Translations under genes and position numbers: made by a program | NCBI GenBank assembly: GCA_042217545.1 | Contig: JBDGSM010000015.1 | Coordinates: forward strand, 1-15,190 | DNA from: Candidatus Nanohalobium sp. | Lineage (GTDB): Archaea > Nanohalarchaeota > Nanosalinia > Nanosalinales > Nanosalinaceae | Length of the DNA: 15,190 nucleotides | Direction of reading: 5' to 3' | The notes under the pieces: generated by a model | The model's input: only the letters and a program-made list of their open reading frames with translations | Told to the model about the DNA's origin: nothing | The model's database searches: none | In this document: positions 4,859-14,896 of the stretch, in pieces | How positions within the stretch are numbered: position 1 is the stretch's first letter | Layout of the letters: every line of letters starts with the position of its first letter

Positions 4859-5629
4859 TCACCTCTCACCTTTTAATTCGTTTTCAGGTTTACGACCTCT
4901 GAAACCCAGGATCTCATCGTATCCATCCGTCGACATCAGAACCGGGTAAAAGGCCTCCTCCGCATTCAGTTCTTCATCCTCGTTCTCAGCGTACTTCTCA
5001 CCTTTCTCGACTTTCTCGAAGTTCTGGGCCAGGAACTCATAGTTTCCAGGCACAGCTTCGTACATCTCGAAGATCTCAGGCCTTTCCACAGGTTTCTCGC
5101 GGTCGATAGCGCCAAAGCAGGCCAGGAAGTTCAGTAATACTTCGTAGGCGTTTTCCTCAGCTTCCTCAGTGCCGACCTCGCCCACCTCAACAGAAACTGC
5201 GTCAAGATACTTCTCGACGCTGTCCTTATCAAGCGGGGCGACATCCACAGCTCTATCGACCCCGGGAGCGGTGACAAGATCTTCATCAACTGTATTGACG
5301 AGGCAGAAGGCCTCGTCGAACTCCGTCATGGAGTGTATAGTCAGCGATTTGAGGCCTTCAAGCTCCTCCATAAGTTTTGCGGCGAGTCTCTCCTCGTGGC
5401 TGTTGCTTTCAGGATCTCCGGGGAAGCAGCGGTTCAGATCAGTATCTATGAATCTTTCTCCCTGTTCCCTCGCTTCTTCGTTCGCCACTATGAACTTGAC
5501 AGGCTTCTCCAGCTTGAAATTGCCCTCCAGGAATCTTTCTACCGCTTTACTGCCGCAGACCTCGTCTCCGTGTACTGCTGCGACCACTGCTATCTCAGGT
5601 TCGCCAGGACCTTTCTCCACGACTCTCAA
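4859..5629 (-). CDS. Succinylglutamate desuccinylase/aspartoacylase (M14-like Zn hydrolase), paralogue 1
   Basis: HGDE, DLNRCFPG, IHS, SVEVG. TTG start with SD AGGAGGTGA overlaps the trpA stop. Confidence 0.85.
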   Translation of the reverse strand: MRVVEKGPGEPEIAVVAAVHGDEVCGSKAVERFLEGNFKLEKPVKFIVANEEAREQGERFIDTDLNRCFPGDPESNSHEERLAAKLMEELEGLKSLTIHSMTEFDEAFCLVNTVDEDLVTAPGVDRAVDVAPLDKDSVEKYLDAVSVEVGEVGTEEAEENAYEVLLNFLACFGAIDREKPVERPEIFEMYEAVPGNYEFLAQNFEKVEKGEKYAENEDEELNAEEAFYPVLMSTDGYDEILGFRGRKPENELKGER

Positions 5630-6390
5630 GACCTCTCACCTCCTACGGTTTCAGAGACCTCTGAAGCCAGTTCTTCGACTCCTTCAAGGCCTTCATCAGT
5701 GTATGCATCGATTATAGCGCTTCCCATGATGACGCCGTCCGCTCCTGCGTTCAGGGCTTTCTCTGCGTGTTCGGAGCTGGAGATCCCGAAACCTATGCAT
5801 CTTGGGACGTCGAGGCCTTCCGTTTTCTCCATCAGCTCCTCTGTCTTATCCGAGAAGCTGCTCCTTGCTCCTGTAGTTCCTTTGACTGCGACGATGTAGG
5901 CGAAGCCTTGGGTCAGCTCTCCTATCTCTTCTACACGTTCCTCTGGCGTGTTCTGTCCTATGAGGAAGATCTGGTTCACGTCCGTATCTAACTCGCCGAT
6001 CTCCTCCCCGTACATCTCAGGCGGCATGTCAGGAATGATGAGGCCGTTCACCCCTGCTTCTTCCGCAGCCTCAAAGAAGGCCTCGTATCCGTACCTCCTG
6101 ACTGTATTCGCATACGCAAGCAGAACAATGGGCGTGTCTGGGAACTCCGAGGCAACCTCCAGCACGTCGTCCGCAGTTATATCGTGTTCAAGGGCTTCCA
6201 TATCTGCTTCTGTTATCGTAGGGCCGTCAGCCATCGGATCGCTGAAAGGAACACCTAACTCGACGATATTAGCCCCGCTATCGACCAGAGTCTCTACTAT
6301 CTCCTTCGAGGTTTCTTTGTCCGGGTATCCTCCGACTGTGAAAGGCATGAAGGCCTCTCCATTTTCAAATACTTCTTCAATCGAAGTCAA
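5626..6390 (-). CDS. trpA: Tryptophan synthase alpha subunit
   Basis: [38 protein letters not shown] start with SD GGAGGTGG inside the trpB 3' end. Confidence 0.96.
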
Positions 6391-7531
6391 GGCCTTCCAC
6401 CTCCGCTACAGTATGCATATCCTTGTCTCCACGGCCTGAGAGGTTTACAAGGATCTTGTCGTGTTCATCCGCCAGTTCCTTTGCGAGGGCGACTGCGTGA
6501 GCAGATTCCAGTGCCGGTATGATGCCCTCGGTTTCTGATAGATCGGTGAAGGCCTCCATCGCTGCTTTGTCGTTCACTGCGAAGTAATCTGCTCGTTCCA
6601 TCTCGCTGAGGACGGAGTGTTGCGGTCCTACTCCCGGGTAGTCGAGGCCTGCGGAGACCGATTCTGCTTCCTCTATATTTCCTGAGTCGTCCTGCAGGAA
6701 GTAGGATTTGAATCCCTGGAAGATTCCGACCTCTCCCTGCGATATGCTGGCTGCGTTTCCTTCTTCGTTGCCTCCGGCCTCTGCTCCATACATCGCGACT
6801 TCTTCGTCTTCTACGAATTCGTGGAAGAGGCCTATAGCGTTAGATCCTCCTCCAACACATGCGACAAGTGCATCCGGAAGCTCATCTTCTCTTTCGAGGA
6901 ACTGTTCGCGGGCTTCCTCTCCTATGACCTGCTGGAAGTATCTCACTATCTCCGGGAATGGATCAGGGCCTACTACACTTCCTATCAGGTAATGCGTGTC
7001 TTCGGAGTTCGCGACGTAGTCCTGTATTGCTGCGTTGACCGCATCCTTCAGGGTTTTCGCGCCCTGGTCGACAGGCTTAACTTCCGCACCGCATTTCTCT
7101 ATCCTGAGTGCGTTCATCTTCTGTCTTTCCACGTCTTTCCTGCCCATGTAGATCTCTACCTCCATATCGAAGTAGGCACCGACCATCGCTGTTGCGATAC
7201 CGTGCTGCCCAGCTCCTGTCTCTGCGATGAGTCGTTCCTTTCCCATCTTCTTCGCTAGCAAGGCCTGACCCAATGTATTGTTGATCTTGTGGGCGCCGCC
7301 GTGCAGAAGATCCTCTCTCTTCAGGTAGATCTCTGCTCCGTATCTTTCTGAGAGGTTTTCGGCCCTGTAGACTGAGGTAGGCCTTCCTGCGAACTCTTTC
7401 AGGTGTTTCTCGAACTCTTCTCTGAATTCCTCGCTGTTTCTGGCTTCCTCGAACTCTTCTTCCAGTTCTTCGAGTACCGGTACGAGTAGTTCTGGTACGT
7501 ATTTTCCGCCGAACTCTGTCATCTGTTCCAT
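6377..7531 (-). CDS. trpB: Tryptophan synthase beta subunit (TrpB1 type)
   Basis: [19 protein letters not shown] (PLP Lys), [26 protein letters not shown] 7531 preferred because SD AGGTGA overlaps the upstream TAG; GTG 7543 is an alternative start. Confidence 0.97.
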
Positions 7532-7543
7532 CTTTCCCTTCAC

Positions 7544-7924
7544 CTAGAACTGGTACATCCCAGGGTTTTGTTCCTGTTGGTTTCCTTCCAGCACCTGTTC
7601 AGCTTTCTCCACGAGACCCAGGTTCGAGGCCTGATCCTCAGCCACGGAAGGGAAGTTCTCCGCGTAGAACTCGTTGATAGCTTCCTCAGCGTGCTCCATC
7701 GCGAGGTAGATCTCGGACTCCTGCTCGTCAAGCATCTCCTCGTTCAGTTCCAGGTCTATGAACTCCTCATTCAGAACACCGTCGTAAGGAGCGACTTCAA
7801 CCGTTCCTATCTCCTGGTCGAGGCCTTCGTGGTAGAGAGAAAACTCCTTTGCCCCTTGATACTTTGGGCTTAAAGCTGTACTGTTATCTAGAGGTTTTGC
7901 GTGTATGTTTCCAAAAGCGTCCAC
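7544..7924 (-). CDS. Unknown acidic, Trp-free protein; probably the +1-frame part of a 141-aa product starting at ATG 7970
   Basis: Halophile-like composition; abuts trpB; annotated start is a GTG lying inside the repeated cassette; frame is +1 relative to leader 7884-7970. Confidence 0.7.
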   Translation of the reverse strand: MDAFGNIHAKPLDNSTALSPKYQGAKEFSLYHEGLDQEIGTVEVAPYDGVLNEEFIDLELNEEMLDEQESEIYLAMEHAEEAINEFYAENFPSVAEDQASNLGLVEKAEQVLEGNQQEQNPGMYQF

Positions 7925-7970
7925 CCTTCTGCAGGGATTCGGTCGTAGCGTGTTGTGTGTCGTAGCTCAT
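7884..7970 (-). CDS. Leader ORF L1, 28 aa: MSYDTQHATTESLQKGGRFWKHTRKTSR
   Basis: First ATG after the BRE/TATA at 8005-8018; single Trp codon in TTT-TGG; motif shared with L2 and L3. Confidence 0.65.
   Translation of the reverse strand: MSYDTQHATTESLQKGGRFWKHTRKTSR
7905..7931 (-). repeat. 27-bp direct repeat, copy 1 (CAGAAGGGTGGACGCTTTTGGAAACAT)
   Basis: 26/27 identical to 8231-8257; core also present at 13011-13029 (+). Confidence 0.95.
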
Positions 7971-8004
7971 ATCTTTCACGTATCCCAATAATACGCAGGA
8001 AAAT

Positions 8005-8018
8005 TTTAAATACCTTTC
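8005..8018 (-). promoter_or_regulatory. BRE/TATA (GAAAGG-TATTTAAA) for the trp unit
   Basis: Consensus-like archaeal promoter about 35 nt upstream of ATG 7970. Confidence 0.6.
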
Positions 8019-8182
8019 AGGCCTCAACAGAGGCTATAAGCGGCATAGATAGCTCTAGAGGTTTTAATTCTGGCAGAAATTCCTGAAAAAGATGTAGGTA
8101 GGCCTTTCAGTTGGTCAGCCATGAGAAATTTTTCACTGAAGCGATCTGGAGATAGGTACGGCTCAGGTGATATGTCTTCGCA

Positions 8183-8263
8183 TCAGGCCTTGGAGCCTGC
8201 TGCTCCTGCATCTCTTCCATGCGGAGAGAGATGTTTCCAAAAACGTCCACCCTTCTGAGCCAT
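8183..8263 (-). CDS. Leader ORF L2, 26 aa: MAQKGGRFWKHLSPHGRDAGAAGSKA (+1 frame open to TGA ending at 8107)
   Basis: ATG places the repeat in the same frame as in L1; the only repeat mismatch (CGT/CGC) is synonymous. Confidence 0.5.
   Translation of the reverse strand: MAQKGGRFWKHLSPHGRDAGAAGSKA
8231..8257 (-). repeat. 27-bp direct repeat, copy 2 (CAGAAGGGTGGACGTTTTTGGAAACAT)
   Basis: 26/27 identical to 7905-7931. Confidence 0.95.
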
Positions 8264-8287
8264 AAAAAGTTAGTAGGGGGTGAACTG

Positions 8288-9049
8288 TTAAAATTCTTTC
8301 TTCTTCCCTTTGAACCCGATCATATCCTCATAACCATCGGTTGACATAAGGACCGGACAGAAACTTTCTGAGGCCTTTTTGACGTTTTCCCTGTTTTCGG
8401 CGTATTTCTCTCCTTTTTCGAGTGGTACGAAGTTCTCCGCCTTGAATTCGTAGTTTTCTCCTTTTGCTCTGTCGTAGACCTCGAAGACTTCTGGTTCCGA
8501 TCGATCGTATTTTTGATCTATTACTCCTTCAGCGGCGAGTAAGTTGAGCAGTATCTGGCAGGTCATCTGCGCTGATTGCGGGCTTGCGTCAGGTCCTGCC
8601 TCGACAGTGACGCCGTTGAGGTGGTTGATCATTCCTCCCTCCACGTAGGAGATCTCGACAAGGTTCTCCATGCAGGTATGTCTCGCCAGTTCGTATGTTT
8701 CCTCCGTAAGGCCTGAAACGATGGCGAAAGGAGTTTTCGGAGACTCAGAGGAATGGAAGTCTATTACTTTGAGGCCTTCAAGCTCCTCCAGAAGCCTTGC
8801 CGCCAATCTCTCCTCATGACTGTCACTATCCCCATCTCCCGGAAATGCATGGTTCAGATCTCTGTCTATGTAGCGTTCTCCTCTGTAGAAGGCTTTTTCG
8901 TTGGCAAGGATGAACTTTACCGGTTCGTTGAGGCCTATCGCTTCTCTCTTGAACCTTTCGAAGGCCTTGAGACCACAGGGTTCGTCTCCGTGGATACAGG
9001 CCACGATAGCTATTTCCGGCTCTCCCTGTCCCAGGACTTCTGTCTTCAT
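8288..9049 (-). CDS. Succinylglutamate desuccinylase/aspartoacylase-family hydrolase, paralogue 2
   Basis: HGDEPCG, DLNHAFPG, DFHS, TVEAG, PVLMSTDGY; alignable end to end with 4859-5629. ATG 9049 has SD CAGGTGAG. Confidence 0.88.
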   Translation of the reverse strand: MKTEVLGQGEPEIAIVACIHGDEPCGLKAFERFKREAIGLNEPVKFILANEKAFYRGERYIDRDLNHAFPGDGDSDSHEERLAARLLEELEGLKVIDFHSSESPKTPFAIVSGLTEETYELARHTCMENLVEISYVEGGMINHLNGVTVEAGPDASPQSAQMTCQILLNLLAAEGVIDQKYDRSEPEVFEVYDRAKGENYEFKAENFVPLEKGEKYAENRENVKKASESFCPVLMSTDGYEDMIGFKGKKKEF

Positions 9050-9144
9050 TTTCTCACCTGTTGAAGGCCTTTTCCTGGTTTTCGAGATGTTTCGAGGATG
9101 TGAAGTCGTTTTTGTGGTAGTTGGATGTTTGTTCACCTTGTAGT

Positions 9145-12999: not shown

Positions 13000-13056
13000 A
13001 TGATACCAATGAAAGGTGGACGTTTTGGACTGCAGTCAAATGCAGTCGCACGGTAG
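13000..13056 (+). CDS. Leader ORF L3, 18 aa: MIPMKGGRFGLQSNAVAR
   Basis: TTTTAA at 12973-12978 fits a leaderless start at ATG 13000; shares KGGRF with L1 and L2. Confidence 0.5.
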   Translation: MIPMKGGRFGLQSNAVAR

Positions 13057-13067
13057 TATAACGAACC

Positions 13068-13129
13068 CCGAAACTTCTGTGAAGTTTCTCATGACCAGAA
13101 ACTCTGCGAGTTTCGGATTTTCAAAATCC
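13068..13129 (+). promoter_or_regulatory. Cluster of inverted repeats upstream of glyS, possible RNA switch
   Basis: GAAACTTC-TGT-GAAGTTTC (13070-13088), GAAACTC-TGC-GAGTTTC (13098-13114), GGATTT-TCA-AAATCC (13115-13129). Confidence 0.6.
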
Positions 13130-13171
13130 TCTAGTTCTGACTATAAAAATTTCCAGTTCGGTGCTTGATCT

Positions 13172-14896
13172 ATGGACAATCTTACTGAAAAGATAGCCGA
13201 GCTGTCGAAAAGGCGTGGTTTCTTCTTCCAGAGCAGCGAAGCTTATGGTGGCGTTTCAGGTTTCCAGACCTTCGGACCTGAAGGCGCAGAAGTCAAGAGA
13301 AAGATCGAAAACTCGTGGAGAGAAACTTTCTCCCGCTCACTCGGGCACAGAGAGATAGAAGCTCCGACAATCATGCCAGAGGAGGTTTTCAAGGCCTCAG
13401 GCCATCTGGATACGTTCGACGACATGATAATCGAGTGTCCGGAGTGCGAGAACTCTCATAGAGCCGATCACCTGGTAGAGGACAATACAGAGATCGAGGA
13501 AGCTGAATCTTTCTCACATGAACAGGTGGAGGCCTTGATCAAGGAGCACGACCTGGTCTGTCCGAGCTGCGGCGAGAGCCTCTCCGATGTACCGGTTGAG
13601 GATTTCAACCTGATGTTTGAGACCTCGATAGGTCCTGGAAGCGGCGAACCAGGCTATCTCAGGCCTGAAACTGCACAGGGAATCTTCGTGGAGTTCCCAC
13701 GGCTGAAAGAATACGCACGGAACCAGTTGCCTTTCGGTATCACCCAGATCGGAAAGGCCTACAGAAACGAGATAAGTCCGAGAAAAGGCCTTGTCCGTGT
13801 ACGTGAACTGACTCAGGCGGAGCTGGAGCATTTCATCGATCCTGAGGAGGACGAGCCTCCGATCGAGGATGTTGAACACGTGGAGGTCAAGCTGTACTCC
13901 CGTGAGGAACAGAAGGCTGAAGATGGAGAGGTAGTCAAGATAACGGTCAGAGAGGCCGTTGAAGACGAAGTCGTCGAGTCTGACTGGATCGCGTACTATC
14001 TAGGTATCGCGAAGCAGTGGTACGAGTCGATCGGCGTGGACATGGACCGGTTCAGGTTCAGGCAGCATCAGAACGACGAGCTTTCTCATTACGCCAGCGA
14101 TTGCTGGGATGCAGAGGCAGACACAAGCGCACCCGGTGCCCAGCCCGACTGGATCGAGATAACCGGTTTCGCCTACAGAGGCTGTTACGACCTCAAGAAG
14201 CACAATAAGTACTCCCGCGAGGACTATACTATCTTCAAGGAGTACGACGAGCCGAGGACAGTAGAGAAAAACACGGTCAGCCCAGACATGGGCTACTTAG
14301 GCCCTGAGTTCGGTGATAAAGCGGGCGAGATTAAAGAAAAGCTGGAGGAACTGGCAGAGGAGAATCCTGAGGCCTTTGAAGCCGACAAGGTCCTGGTCGA
14401 GGTCGATGGCGAGGAGTTCTCGATTCCGGAGGAGAAATGTAACTTTTCAGTCGACGAGGTTACTGAGAACGGTGAGCGCATTCTTCCTCAGGTTGTCGAG
14501 CCTTCGTTCGGTATCGACAGGATTGTCTACACGGTTCTGGCCCATGCTTTCGATGAGGACGAGGTGAACGGCGAGGAACGTACAGTTCTACGCCTGAATG
14601 AAGAGGTCGCACCGACTGAAGTAGCTGTCTTCCCTCTTATGGACAAGGAAGGCCTCGGCGAGAAAGCTCGTGAAGTAGCATCTATGCTGCGGAACGAAGG
14701 TTTCTCCGTCAAGTACGATGACACAGGCAACATCGGTAAGCGTTACAGGCGGCAGGACGAGGTCGGCACACCTGTCTGCGTAACGATTGATTACGAGACA
14801 CTGGAGGACGAGCCCGAGACCGTGACCGTCAGGGACAGGGATTCAACGGAACAGAAACGTGTAGAGATCGATGATCTAGCTGAGCGCCTGAGATAG
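13172..14896 (+). CDS. glyS: Glycyl-tRNA synthetase (alpha2, archaeal/eukaryotic type)
   Basis: KRRGFF, ASGH, YLRPETAQG, YRNEISPR, EPSFGIDR, IGKRYRRQDEVGTP anticodon-binding domain. Confidence 0.97.
   Translation: MDNLTEKIAELSKRRGFFFQSSEAYGGVSGFQTFGPEGAEVKRKIENSWRETFSRSLGHREIEAPTIMPEEVFKASGHLDTFDDMIIECPECENSHRADHLVEDNTEIEEAESFSHEQVEALIKEHDLVCPSCGESLSDVPVEDFNLMFETSIGPGSGEPGYLRPETAQGIFVEFPRLKEYARNQLPFGITQIGKAYRNEISPRKGLVRVRELTQAELEHFIDPEEDEPPIEDVEHVEVKLYSREEQKAEDGEVVKITVREAVEDEVVESDWIAYYLGIAKQWYESIGVDMDRFRFRQHQNDELSHYASDCWDAEADTSAPGAQPDWIEITGFAYRGCYDLKKHNKYSREDYTIFKEYDEPRTVEKNTVSPDMGYLGPEFGDKAGEIKEKLEELAEENPEAFEADKVLVEVDGEEFSIPEEKCNFSVDEVTENGERILPQVVEPSFGIDRIVYTVLAHAFDEDEVNGEERTVLRLNEEVAPTEVAVFPLMDKEGLGEKAREVASMLRNEGFSVKYDDTGNIGKRYRRQDEVGTPVCVTIDYETLEDEPETVTVRDRDSTEQKRVEIDDLAERLR

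Follow-up and report, generated by a model that had tools for sequence, protein, structure and literature searches.

How a cell keeps the level of each tRNA ligase in step with demand is largely unknown in archaea, and we know of no cis-acting, amino-acid-specific control that has been described for an archaeal tRNA ligase gene. The question is raised by a 15,190-nucleotide stretch of DNA from Candidatus Nanohalobium sp. (contig JBDGSM010000015.1, here referred to as the window), in which the operon trpB-trpA-(AstE/AspA-like)-trpS (7531-3739, minus strand) is preceded by two overlapping reading frames, the first of which contains a single TGG codon. An earlier note, made from the sequence alone, had proposed that ribosomes slip into the +1 frame at this codon when Trp-tRNA is scarce and so carry translation into the operon. 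Here, we ask whether the leader has the features of such a sensor, whether it stands alone and which other explanations could account for it.

The genes of the operon are trpB (7531-6377), trpA (6390-5626) and trpS (4869-3739), assigned to the NCBIfam families TrpB, TrpA and TrpRS, with the AstE/AspA-like gene (5629-4859) between trpA and trpS; they and all features of the first leader, here called copy 1, lie on the minus strand. Upstream of trpB, a TATA-like ATTTAAAA (8011-8004) is found 33 nt ahead of an ATG (7970-7968), and ACGTGA (7981-7976), a short stretch that resembles a Shine-Dalgarno (SD) sequence and may act as one, lies 5 nt ahead of the same ATG; ACGTGA also precedes the orthologous leader ATG in two other loci (L004 and L007). 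The frame-0 leader ORF (7970-7884) comprises 28 codons, MSYDTQHATTESLQKGGRFWKHTRKTSR, and a TAA (7886-7884), and reads GGT GGA CGC TTT TGG at 7925-7911. This cassette can be divided into an SD-like GGTGGA (7925-7920), a CGC spacer that would occupy the E site (7919-7917), a TTT proposed as the slippery P-site codon (7916-7914, with TTT-T at 7916-7913) and a TGG proposed as the specifier, or hungry A-site, codon (7913-7911), which is the only Trp codon of the leader and is followed by the stop 8 codons further on. The +1-frame ORF (7924-7544) has 126 codons counted from a GTG at 7924 and ends with TAG (7546-7544); a ribosome shifting on TTT-T would enter it at GGA 7912 and translate 122 codons before this TAG. 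The promoter, the ATG, the cassette and the TAA listed in the earlier note were all recovered at these minus-strand positions, and a shift at TTT-T would yield the 141-residue product it had predicted (19+122 residues), without Trp. It was also right that the TAG overlaps the trpB SD, within TAGGTGA (7546-7540) and 8 nt ahead of the trpB ATG 7531, and that a GGTGG core recurs at the SD of trpA, whose TTG start at 6390 is preceded by GGAGGTGGA. A AAAACCTCTAGA element is located at 7898-7887 and repeated at 8065-8054 (minus strand), and related AAAACC(T)TCTAG elements are found in the leaders of other ligases.

The ratio pN/pS is 0.22 for the +1 frame of copy 1 vs 2.07 and 1.12 for the remaining two frames, and the 126-codon ORF is under purifying selection; codons 2-15 of frame 0 give a pN of 0.49 and a pS of 0.65, and the leader peptide is not conserved. 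The +1-frame protein is acidic and Trp-free, has 12 homologues and matched no Pfam family, and its AF2 model is of moderate confidence (pLDDT 69.6). Its top Foldseek matches in the PDB are GNAT enzymes at a non-significant E of ~0.14, and a profile comparison with the GNAT protein encoded at the same position in relatives aligned the cassette-encoded first 12 residues only.

The leader does not stand alone. The 15-mer GGTGGACGYTTTTGG occurs twice in the window, at 7925-7911 and 8251-8237, and the second copy, which the earlier note overlooked, is found 326 nt upstream of the first (8257-8231). On the minus strand, copy 2 has its own TATA-like AATTTTAAC (8295-8287), which overlaps the stop of an upstream AstE-like gene and lies 23 nt ahead of ATG 8263, a frame-0 ORF (8263-8183) encoding MAQKGGRFWKHLSPHGRDAGAAGSKA with the cassette GGTGGACGTTTTTGG at 8251-8237, and a 47-codon +1-frame ORF (8250-8107) for a conserved small peptide ending ..YLQIASVKNFSW... 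Across 20 aligned +1 ORFs of this type, synonymous third-position changes are seen, and a Trp near the end is conserved. On the other strand of the window is a Gly-codon cassette, also overlooked previously: the glycine leader (13009-13168, plus strand) reads ATG AAA GGT GGA CGT TTT GGA at 13009-13029, has a frame-0 TAG at 13054-13056 and a +1 ORF (13016-13168, plus strand) that ends 3 nt short of the GlyRS ATG at 13172.

In the phylum, the census covered motif-based searches and five ThrRS loci of divergent genomes. With at most one mismatch, the 15-mer GGTGGACGYTTTTGG gave 77 listed matches in 39 of 70 genomes, vs 15 for the reversed control, and the core GGTGGAYGYTTT followed by other codons is present in 55 of the 70. 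An in-frame upstream ATG accompanies 39 of 42 distinct TGG instances (30 loci) vs 24% of 20,000 random positions in the same loci, and it stands exactly 15 codons ahead of the GGT in 10 of the 42 (the copy-1 type) and exactly 4 codons ahead in 14 (the copy-2 type). Given the excess over the control matches and over the random positions, the cassette arrangement is far beyond chance. Looking among homologous loci for a conserved GGTGGA-NNN-TTT-TGG with a broken frame, as the earlier note had suggested, gave a positive result, and a stronger one than it required; its expectation that homologues would not be continuous ORFs holds for dozens of genomes and fails for the L004 orthologue, in which upstream +1-frame ATGs give a continuous ORF of 138 codons. 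An SD-like variant that lacks the GTG, GGAGGACGCTTT CGG in genome G000, sits within a long coding frame and was for this reason set aside as a chance match.

If the codon after the TTT acts as a sensor, it should agree with the genes that follow. The directly downstream tRNA ligase was cognate to this codon in 33 of 33 cases tested, with 0 mismatches, as a codon-specific sensor predicts; the first set contributed Ser 4, Tyr 4, Gly 5, Thr 4, Cys 2, Val 3 and Phe 2, the second Lys 2, and the third Val, Tyr, Lys and Gly from G000, Cys 2 and Trp 1. Motif matches without an in-frame ATG were left out of the codon-gene tally as chance occurrences (L044, the second motif of L056, L070, L075, L079, L010 and L035). 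Apart from genes directly adjoining, CAT/CAC (His) leaders head an operon with HisRS as its last gene, an ATT (Ile) leader precedes IlvA, and TGG leaders are found at the heads of TrpRS-ending operons or ahead of TrpE and TrpD-like genes; the TGG cassettes with named genes adjoin or lie near TrpRS or trp genes (window, L012, L016-L020, L013, L033 and L111-L113). Cassettes also occur in series: a GGRVL or GGCVL cassette comes after an Ile or Val cassette and is in frame with it, and a second His cassette lies within the +1 frame of the first. No codon-gene link was made for the AAA cassette ahead of endonuclease V (L053), the ATC cassette ahead of a distant helicase (L054), ATT cassettes ahead of unnamed proteins of 328-373 residues (L045, L048 and L062), a TTC cassette ahead of an unnamed protein (L063), GTA/GTG cassettes ahead of small unnamed ORFs (L071 and L125-L128), a TCA cassette ahead of a HerA-like protein (L074) and the GTT CTN cassettes of G000 (C16, C17 and C26).

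These observations bear on the explanation that nothing is regulated and that copy 1 reflects a gene in decay, an indel introduced by assembly or a fortuitous upstream ORF before an ordinary GTG-started gene. The source assembly is fragmented (82 contigs, 92% complete) and short ORFs commonly arise by chance, but 7500-8320 is covered without a gap by contigs of two public runs (X1 and X2), and the assembled contigs of four runs have no indel at either T-run, the T4 run having been the place where the earlier note thought an error might hide. An assembly indel does not account for the broken frame. The same frame structure in dozens of genomes and the consistent match of codon and ligase likewise speak against an absence of regulation, which we regard as extremely improbable.

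Which start codon serves the +1 frame is a more serious matter. TTTAA-type boxes end ~22-29 nt ahead of the leader ATG in most of 31 leaders (judged by eye), a distance that points to leaderless or near-leaderless mRNAs starting at the frame-0 AUG. In 28 of 29 ligase leaders, the +1-frame stop is positioned at -5 to +17 nt relative to the ligase start, with 12 of the 28 forming A/GTGA overlaps and the 29th leader being broken by Ns; the frame-0 stops fall 21-84 nt past the motif and the +2-frame stops are scattered. The cassette is separated from the ligase start by 80-190 nt, and the starts nearest the +1 stop, which were taken as the ligase starts, are ATG in 27 of 29. A conserved TATA-like element found ~22-35 nt ahead of many ligase ATGs (again by eye) suggests an independent promoter, so that coupling need not be the sole route of expression.

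The main alternative to frameshifting is that the +1 ORF simply starts at GTG 7924 and that the frame-0 ORF is a regulatory leader peptide, a pause at the specifier codon altering how accessible the GTG is, how stable the mRNA is or how far transcription reads through. No cassette lacks this GTG, and gene callers begin 10 of the 12 +1-ORF homologues there; a third His cassette lies directly past a stop and has no frame-0 ATG; +1-frame ATGs occur in L004 and in one protein cluster, which begins MVDAFG; and part of the motif variation leaves the +1-frame amino acid unchanged (GAC/GAT, which is R/C in frame 0, and GCT/GCG, which changes the frame-0 TTT to GTT). An ordinary GTG-initiated gene would be expected to have a normally spaced SD and start-codon turnover among its orthologues, but no SD was found ahead of GTG 7924 and ATG replaces the cassette GTG in 0 of the 77 matches listed. 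Set beside the 27 of 29 ligase starts that are ATG, this count suggests that the cassette GTG is kept constant by its place in the SD-like element. In addition, when the ribosome pauses on an mRNA beginning at about the AUG, its P site would be 8 nt beyond the GTG and both start codons would be covered; a shortage would thus lower ligase synthesis, the wrong direction for this alternative, which also leaves the minor-codon TTT/CTT and the fixed 3-nt spacer unexplained and gives two cassettes in the same frame no role. We therefore consider initiation at the GTG without frameshifting unlikely, albeit the strongest competitor, and a control exerted through the pause doubtful to the same degree.

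The sequence around the proposed shift site has the prfB-like geometry claimed for it in the earlier note, with a GGUGG that pairs with the 3' end of the genome's own 16S rRNA and lies 3 nt upstream of the TTT. The pairing involves (A/G)GGUGG and 3'-UCCACU-5' of the 16S 3' end (...GGAUCACCUCC, contig C58), and the cassette variants GGTGAA and GGTGGT maintain or improve it. From GGUG to the P site the spacing is 5 nt in the cassette, vs 7 nt for trpA and 9 nt for trpB, and the 3-nt spacer is invariant in all motif-pattern cassettes and also in two independently found ThrRS leaders, a divergent family that reads GGT GGA TGT/TAT CTT ACA. All 29 ligase-linked cassettes have TTT as their P-site codon, although TTT accounts for 21% of Phe codons in the genome of the window and TTC for 79%; CGC and CGT are minor Arg codons in this genome (7% and 12%). 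When the codon X that follows begins with A or G, a slipped tRNA(Phe) retains 2 of 3 pairs, and the GTT P-site variants pair worse. A tRNA scan of the assembly returned 18 tRNAs, with tRNA-Phe and tRNA-Trp not among them. For RF2 genes, the sections consulted of a review of frameshifting describe a conserved CUU_U shift site, UUU_U in a minority of species and an internal SD as the stimulator (PMC5009743).

The copy-1 leader RNA has a minimum free energy of -20.7 kcal/mol and a z-score of +1.49, that is, no stimulatory structure. Structure is also what would be looked for if the 12-mer and its codon were an untranslated RNA element, bound by tRNA in the manner of a T-box or by a protein, and the ORFs were by-products. 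The specifier logic is indeed like that of T-box leaders and conservation is seen at the nucleotide level; the Gly leader has a z-score of -2.3, and its hairpin, which starts within the specifier codon, varies in sequence between genomes while its pairing is kept (by eye). However, a search of 7400-8400 against Rfam at E values up to 10 returned nothing but a chance miRNA match, and at the gathering score no family, T-box included, was matched in the window or in nine leader loci. The unstructured copy-1 RNA, the absence of a common fold from leaders of just 80-190 nt, the conservation in phase of the frame-0 ATG and a +1 frame that runs open as far as the ligase start in 28 of 29 leaders further argue against an RNA element, and we consider it improbable.

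We favour frameshifting, which alone would raise ligase synthesis as charged tRNA falls, as all ligase controls known to us do. The leaders are probably hungry-codon +1 frameshift sensors coupled to the genes downstream, and copy 1 is likewise probably one case, that for tryptophan, of a family of translational sensor leaders found across the nanohaloarchaeal lineage. The family layout is an ATG near the expected transcript start followed by (N codons)-GGU GGA CGY UUU-X, with X cognate to the downstream genes. In the proposed model, when charged tRNA for X is plentiful, X would be decoded, frame 0 kept and translation terminated early, leaving the downstream start poorly served and the untranslated RNA perhaps also exposed to factor-dependent transcription termination. 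When it is scarce, the ribosome would wait, its A site empty and peptidyl-tRNA(Phe) on UUU, while the SD-like GGUGG, with a spacing 2-4 nt below that of real starts in the window, pairs with the 16S 3' end; this pairing would favour a +1 slip from UUU-U to U-UUU. The shifted ribosome would then translate the +1 ORF, which for copy 1 means 122 further codons of an acidic protein, and termination on the trpB SD and start would deliver translation to trpB, trpA and trpS. TrpRS and Trp synthase would in this way restore decoding of the codon that gates their own synthesis, as in the logic of RF2 (prfB) but on sense codons. On balance, though with slightly less assurance, we think that the 12-nt cassette (GGUGGA, YGY, UUU) makes any sense codon that follows it a sensor of charged tRNA through hungry-codon +1 frameshifting, in a T-box-like regulon that spans at least 11 amino acids and includes tandem OR gates (Ile/Val/Leu) and serial gates (His and Trp). 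Several observations count against frameshifting: the GTG that gene callers mostly use is found in every cassette, a slipped tRNA(Phe) would keep only 2 of 3 pairs for X beginning with A or G and fewer good pairs at GTT, many ligase genes may have a promoter of their own, the third His cassette would have to use GTG or reinitiation, motif variation is in part synonymous in the +1 frame, L004 and the MVDAFG cluster have +1-frame ATGs, the copy-1 RNA is unstructured, and cognate residues occur in the +1 ORFs, including the conserved Trp in copy 2, with no avoidance of the cognate amino acid seen in the Gly and Thr leaders.

Several known systems share part of this logic. In attenuation of the trpL and pheM type, which controls amino-acid operons and pheST, a leader ORF contains cognate control codons and the speed of the ribosome is the signal. 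A short leader ORF with a cognate control codon is likewise found upstream of the operon here, but there is one such codon (two in tandem cassettes) rather than a run, and the proposed output would be a change of frame and coupling. Terminator or antiterminator hairpins were not found in the copy-1 leader, which has no hairpin followed by a U-run, and no common terminator was seen among the other leaders, some of which do contain hairpins. The T-box of Gram-positive bacteria resembles the family in logic only, as a modular leader that is found ahead of many ligase and amino-acid genes and has a single specifier codon; it binds uncharged tRNA directly and is untranslated, whereas the codon here is in phase with an initiation codon. 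The prfB gene, in the sections consulted of the frameshifting review, has a short ORF in the zero frame, an internal SD-like sequence 3 nt ahead of (C/U)UU and a functional product in the +1 frame (PMC5009743). The feedback logic is analogous, but the gating codon is UGA in prfB and a sense codon here (TGG in copy 1), interchangeable among at least 11 amino acids; most +1 products here are not the regulated protein but bridge peptides, terminating where a separate gene starts, and the host is an archaeon with apparently leaderless mRNAs and no sequence homology to the prfB cassette. At the yeast Ty1, ABP140 and EST3 sites (CUU_AGG_C), P-site NUU slippage is similarly promoted by a slow sense codon in the A site for which the tRNA is scarce, as the same source describes (PMC5009743); the Ty1 site is, however, constitutive, depends on a rare tRNA rather than on amino-acid-specific charging and has neither an SD-like element nor a link to tRNA ligases. 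Antizyme, in the accounts consulted, also uses frameshift efficiency as the sensor and effector of a homeostatic loop (PMC5009743, PMC8211752), but it is eukaryotic, and polyamines act there at a stop codon with a 3' pseudoknot.

According to the part consulted of a 2021 review, only one programmed frameshift had been reported in Archaea, a -1 event (PMC8211752), and our literature search found no published description of codon-specific frameshift leaders of this kind or of a leader family in which codon and ligase match. Annotation is affected as well: it misses the leader ORFs, calls the +1 ORFs as hypothetical proteins that start at GTG, and gives cassette-fused proteins the wrong N-termini. 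Should the proposed mechanism hold, Archaea would gain their first regulatory +1 frameshift, amino-acid-specific frameshift sensors would be known for the first time as a natural family, and the feedback principle of RF2 would be widened from stop to sense codons. The cassette would then be a naturally programmable sensor, in which a single codon change leads to a different amino acid being sensed, and a dozen essential genes would have their control explained by one small module, in a lineage of ~1-Mb genomes. Even with the frameshift step wrong, the match between codon and ligase defines a regulatory leader family.

The trp operon of the window is headed, on the minus strand, by a leader (copy 1) in which a TATA-like box, ATTTAAAA (8011-8004), is followed by an ATG at 7970, 14 codons without conservation, the cassette GGT GGA CGC TTT TGG (7925-7911) and, 8 codons past it, the frame-0 stop TAA (7886-7884). 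In the +1 frame no stop interrupts the stretch between GTG 7924 and TAG 7546-7544, and this TAG overlaps the GGTGA Shine-Dalgarno (SD) of trpB (ATG 7531); the coordinates in the earlier note, which had read this arrangement as a candidate Trp-sensing +1 frameshift, were all right on the minus-strand sequence. TrpB, TrpA and TrpRS were named by NCBIfam in the downstream operon, and the gene separating trpA from trpS is AstE/AspA-like. Compared with its orthologue at L004, a locus from another genome, the +1 ORF has a pN/pS of 0.22, versus 2.07 and 1.12 for the other two frames of the same DNA, which argues that the +1 frame is translated and under selection. Contigs of two public runs span 7500-8320 without a gap, and no indel at the T-run was present in the assembled contigs of any of the 4 runs compared, so that the DNA itself carries the frame break. 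No stimulatory fold was predicted for the copy-1 RNA (z +1.49). Two AstE/AspA-like paralogues (4859-5629 and 8288-9136, minus strand) flank the Trp leader and operon, and PGK, the AstE-like gene and the pair of Trp leaders keep this order across genera; at 1419-2942 are two single-domain KaiC-like ATPase genes, of 230 and 242 residues, in divergent orientation.

A 27-nt repeat holding the cassette recurs upstream at 8257-8231 (minus strand), where copy 2 has an in-phase frame-0 ATG at 8263, four codons ahead of GGT, an early frame-0 stop at 8185-8183 and a +1 ORF at 8250-8107. In five related genomes, GGTGGACG[C/T]TTTTGG has a frame-0 ATG in 9 of 9 instances. The comparison of homologous loci suggested in the earlier note was positive, in that GGTGGA-NNN-TTT-TGG is conserved there with a broken frame: the TGG 15-mer (at most one mismatch) has at least 77 matches in 39 of 70 phylum genomes, versus 15 for a reversed control, and an in-frame ATG lies upstream in 39 of 42 distinct instances (30 loci), versus 24% of random control positions, standing 4 codons upstream in 14 of the 42 and 15 codons upstream in 10. 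Among the matches listed, most are paired, 250-330 nt apart. The copy-2 +1 ORF (8107-8250, minus strand; also L012-L038) encodes a conserved peptide, ..YLxISS(V/I)KNxSW, with 0-5 residues between this motif and the stop; the next leader ATG lies about 100-140 nt further on, so there is no obvious coupling, and the peptide may be a second Trp-dependent checkpoint, such as an arrest peptide. The 5' AUG region of copy 2 with GGUGG (8246-8264) is predicted to pair with ..AUCACCUGAGCCGU.. at 8153-8166 on the minus strand (fold z -1.8), a segment that resembles the 16S tail.

When the window's own genome (G000) was scanned for the 12-nt core, the same cassette, GGT GGA CGY TTT X, in which X is the specifier codon, was found ahead of other genes. 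Within the window, ATG AAA GGT GGA CGT TTT GGA (13009-13029, plus strand) lies just ahead of the GlyRS gene, and the 50-codon +1 ORF of the complete leader (13009-13168) ends 3 nt ahead of the GlyRS ATG at 13172. A hairpin starts inside the GGA codon of this leader; in other Gly leaders, judged by eye, the stem sequences differ and the pairing is kept. GGTGGAYGYTTT followed by NNH was found in 55 of 70 phylum genomes (150 matches listed and 15 unlisted, versus 19 in the control), and followed by VNG gave 10 further matches. The next large ORF was named by NCBIfam at 40 places with 42 motif instances, comprising all matches of seven genomes and a few rare codons. In these counts, which include related, non-independent genomes, X was cognate to the adjacent ligase in 33 of 33 cases, with 0 mismatches; for some other cassettes no link between X and the downstream gene was found. 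Directly downstream were SerRS for TCT/TCC (n=4), TyrRS for TAT/TAC (n=4, plus G000), GlyRS for GGA (n=5, plus G000), ThrRS for ACC (n=4), CysRS for TGT (n=4), ValRS for GTA (n=3, plus G000), PheRS alpha for TTC (n=2), LysRS for AAG (n=2, plus G000) and TrpRS for TGG (n=1, L012). The ACC leader of G000 lies at a contig end that cuts the next gene off after 10 codons, which give the same N-terminus as ThrRS at loci L043 and L050. An ATT leader precedes IlvA, CAT/CAC leaders stand at the head of an operon whose last gene is HisRS, and TGG leaders are either directly before TrpRS or head TrpRS-terminated operons with varied inserted genes (GNAT-M20-TrpRS; GCS2-like-AstE-TrpRS; in the window, 126-codon ORF-trpB-trpA-AstE-TrpRS); others lie ahead of TrpE or form a fusion with a TrpD-like gene. 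We take adjacent cognate ligases for nine amino acids, with His at operon distance, to exclude chance despite the non-independent genomes.

The leaders share a common anatomy. TTTAA-type boxes end about 22-29 nt upstream of the leader ATG in most of 31 leaders, copy 2 included (33 nt in copy 1), which matches the distance of about 22-29 nt from an archaeal TATA box to the transcript start, so the frame-0 AUG would be at or beside the 5' end. The typical peptide is M-K-G-G-(R/C)-F-X, followed by 4-20 residues without conservation. Past the cassette the +1 frame is open, and in 28 of 29 ligase leaders it stops -5 to +17 nt from the ligase start, 12 of these 28 stops overlapping it as A/GTGA; frame-0 stops come 21-84 nt past the motif and +2-frame stops are scattered. 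No avoidance of the cognate residue was seen in the +1 ORFs checked. In all 29 ligase-linked cassettes the P-site codon is TTT, yet TTC makes up 79% of Phe codons in the window's genome, in which CGY, the spacer, is rare among Arg codons; ThrRS leaders of a divergent family read ATG AAG GGT GGA TGT CTT ACA and ...GGA TAT CTT ACA, CUU being the shift codon of bacterial release factor 2 (RF2, prfB). In this genome the 16S rRNA ends in ...GGAUCACCUCC, whose UCACCU part can pair with (A/G)GGUGG, and GGUG lies 5 nt from the P site, versus 7 nt ahead of trpA and 9 nt ahead of trpB. At L115, from a divergent genome, ThrRS is preceded not by a cassette but by a 9-codon ORF that includes two Thr codons, MKMETLTLF. 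Leaders of different ligases repeatedly carry an AAAACC(T)TCTAG element (8054-8065 and 7887-7898, minus strand, in the window; L040-L077), usually preceding a TATA-like box 22-35 nt ahead of the ligase ATG; the conservation of this box ahead of many ligase ATGs suggests that there is an additional, independent promoter, and the two elements together may serve a leaderless ligase mRNA.

Since a GTG is invariant in the cassettes, the +1 ORF could instead be initiated there, as gene callers do for 10 of 12 homologues of the copy-1 +1 ORF. We take this as the main rival and the less likely reading. In its favour, L004 has +1-frame ATGs upstream, one protein cluster starts MVDAFG, some motif variants are synonymous when read in the +1 frame and one His cassette lacks frame-0 access; against it, no SD lies upstream of the GTG, and ATG replaces it in 0 of the 77 matches listed, versus ATG in 27 of 29 presumed ligase starts. 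On an mRNA starting at the AUG, moreover, pausing at X would leave the GTG hidden under the ribosome, so that expression would fall in shortage, the wrong direction, and both TTT/CTT and the fixed spacer would be unaccounted for. Frameshifting at the cassette is the reading that we hold, with moderate confidence, to be probable, and the cross-locus comparison lends it support. In sequence terms, a frame-0 leader carrying the cognate codon is translated, a translated +1 frame bridges it to the next gene, and SD-like and slippery features sit at a prfB-like spacing. Scarcity of charged tRNA for X would leave the A site empty, the SD-like element, paired too near the P site, would favour a +1 slip of peptidyl-tRNA(Phe), and the shifted ribosome would reach the next start codon, either through coupling or because it shields the transcript from termination; with ample charged tRNA, translation would terminate early in frame 0. 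At the trp locus the shifted product would be a 141-residue Trp-free protein ending on the trpB SD. The regulatory +1 frameshift logic would be that of RF2, applied here to sense codons; for the RF2 site, the review by Atkins et al. (PMC5009743) gives a conserved CUU_U stimulated by an internal SD, UUU_U occurring in a minority of species, and it treats hungry A-site codons as being of general importance to +1 shifting.

Some cassettes are arranged in tandem. Where an Ile or Val cassette is followed in one frame by a Val-Leu cassette, both open onto the same +1 frame and would act as an OR gate, which fits the frameshift logic. Such pairs with GG(R/C) GTT CTN, together with some GTT CTN cassettes that stand singly, occur among L045, L048, L062, L065, L125 and L126 and contigs C16, C17 and C26 of G000, and such leaders may mediate branched-chain amino-acid control; the downstream genes are mostly without a name. 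At L078 (1540-1990, minus strand) three His cassettes are in series (TTT CAT; GTT CAC; GGTGAACGT GTT CAT), of which the second can be read only after a +1 shift at the first, two shifts thus being needed, and the third directly follows a stop; downstream are an 80-residue ORF (AbrB-like by eye, with no NCBIfam match), a 285-residue ORF and HisRS.

A scan of one genome per species (185,579 species) for the exact Gly-leader 18-mer gave 31 loci, of which 15 are titled Nanohaloarchaea or Nanohalobium, 3 'uncultured archaeon' and 13 as bacteria, the last number being about that expected by chance (roughly 17 by our own estimate). Two of the 13 (L090, L100) lie on contigs from a single MAG titled Colwellia polaris, which are probably mis-binned or mislabelled. 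From this distribution the family looks confined to nanohaloarchaea. No Rfam family matched in the window or in 9 leader loci, a full-text literature search found no paper describing this family, and a 2021 review of archaeal recoding (PMC8211752) gives just one programmed -1 frameshift as reported in Archaea. What the earlier note saw at the trp locus is borne out and its interpretation gains support, and the finding is wider, pointing to a family of codon-programmable leaders rather than a single trp control.
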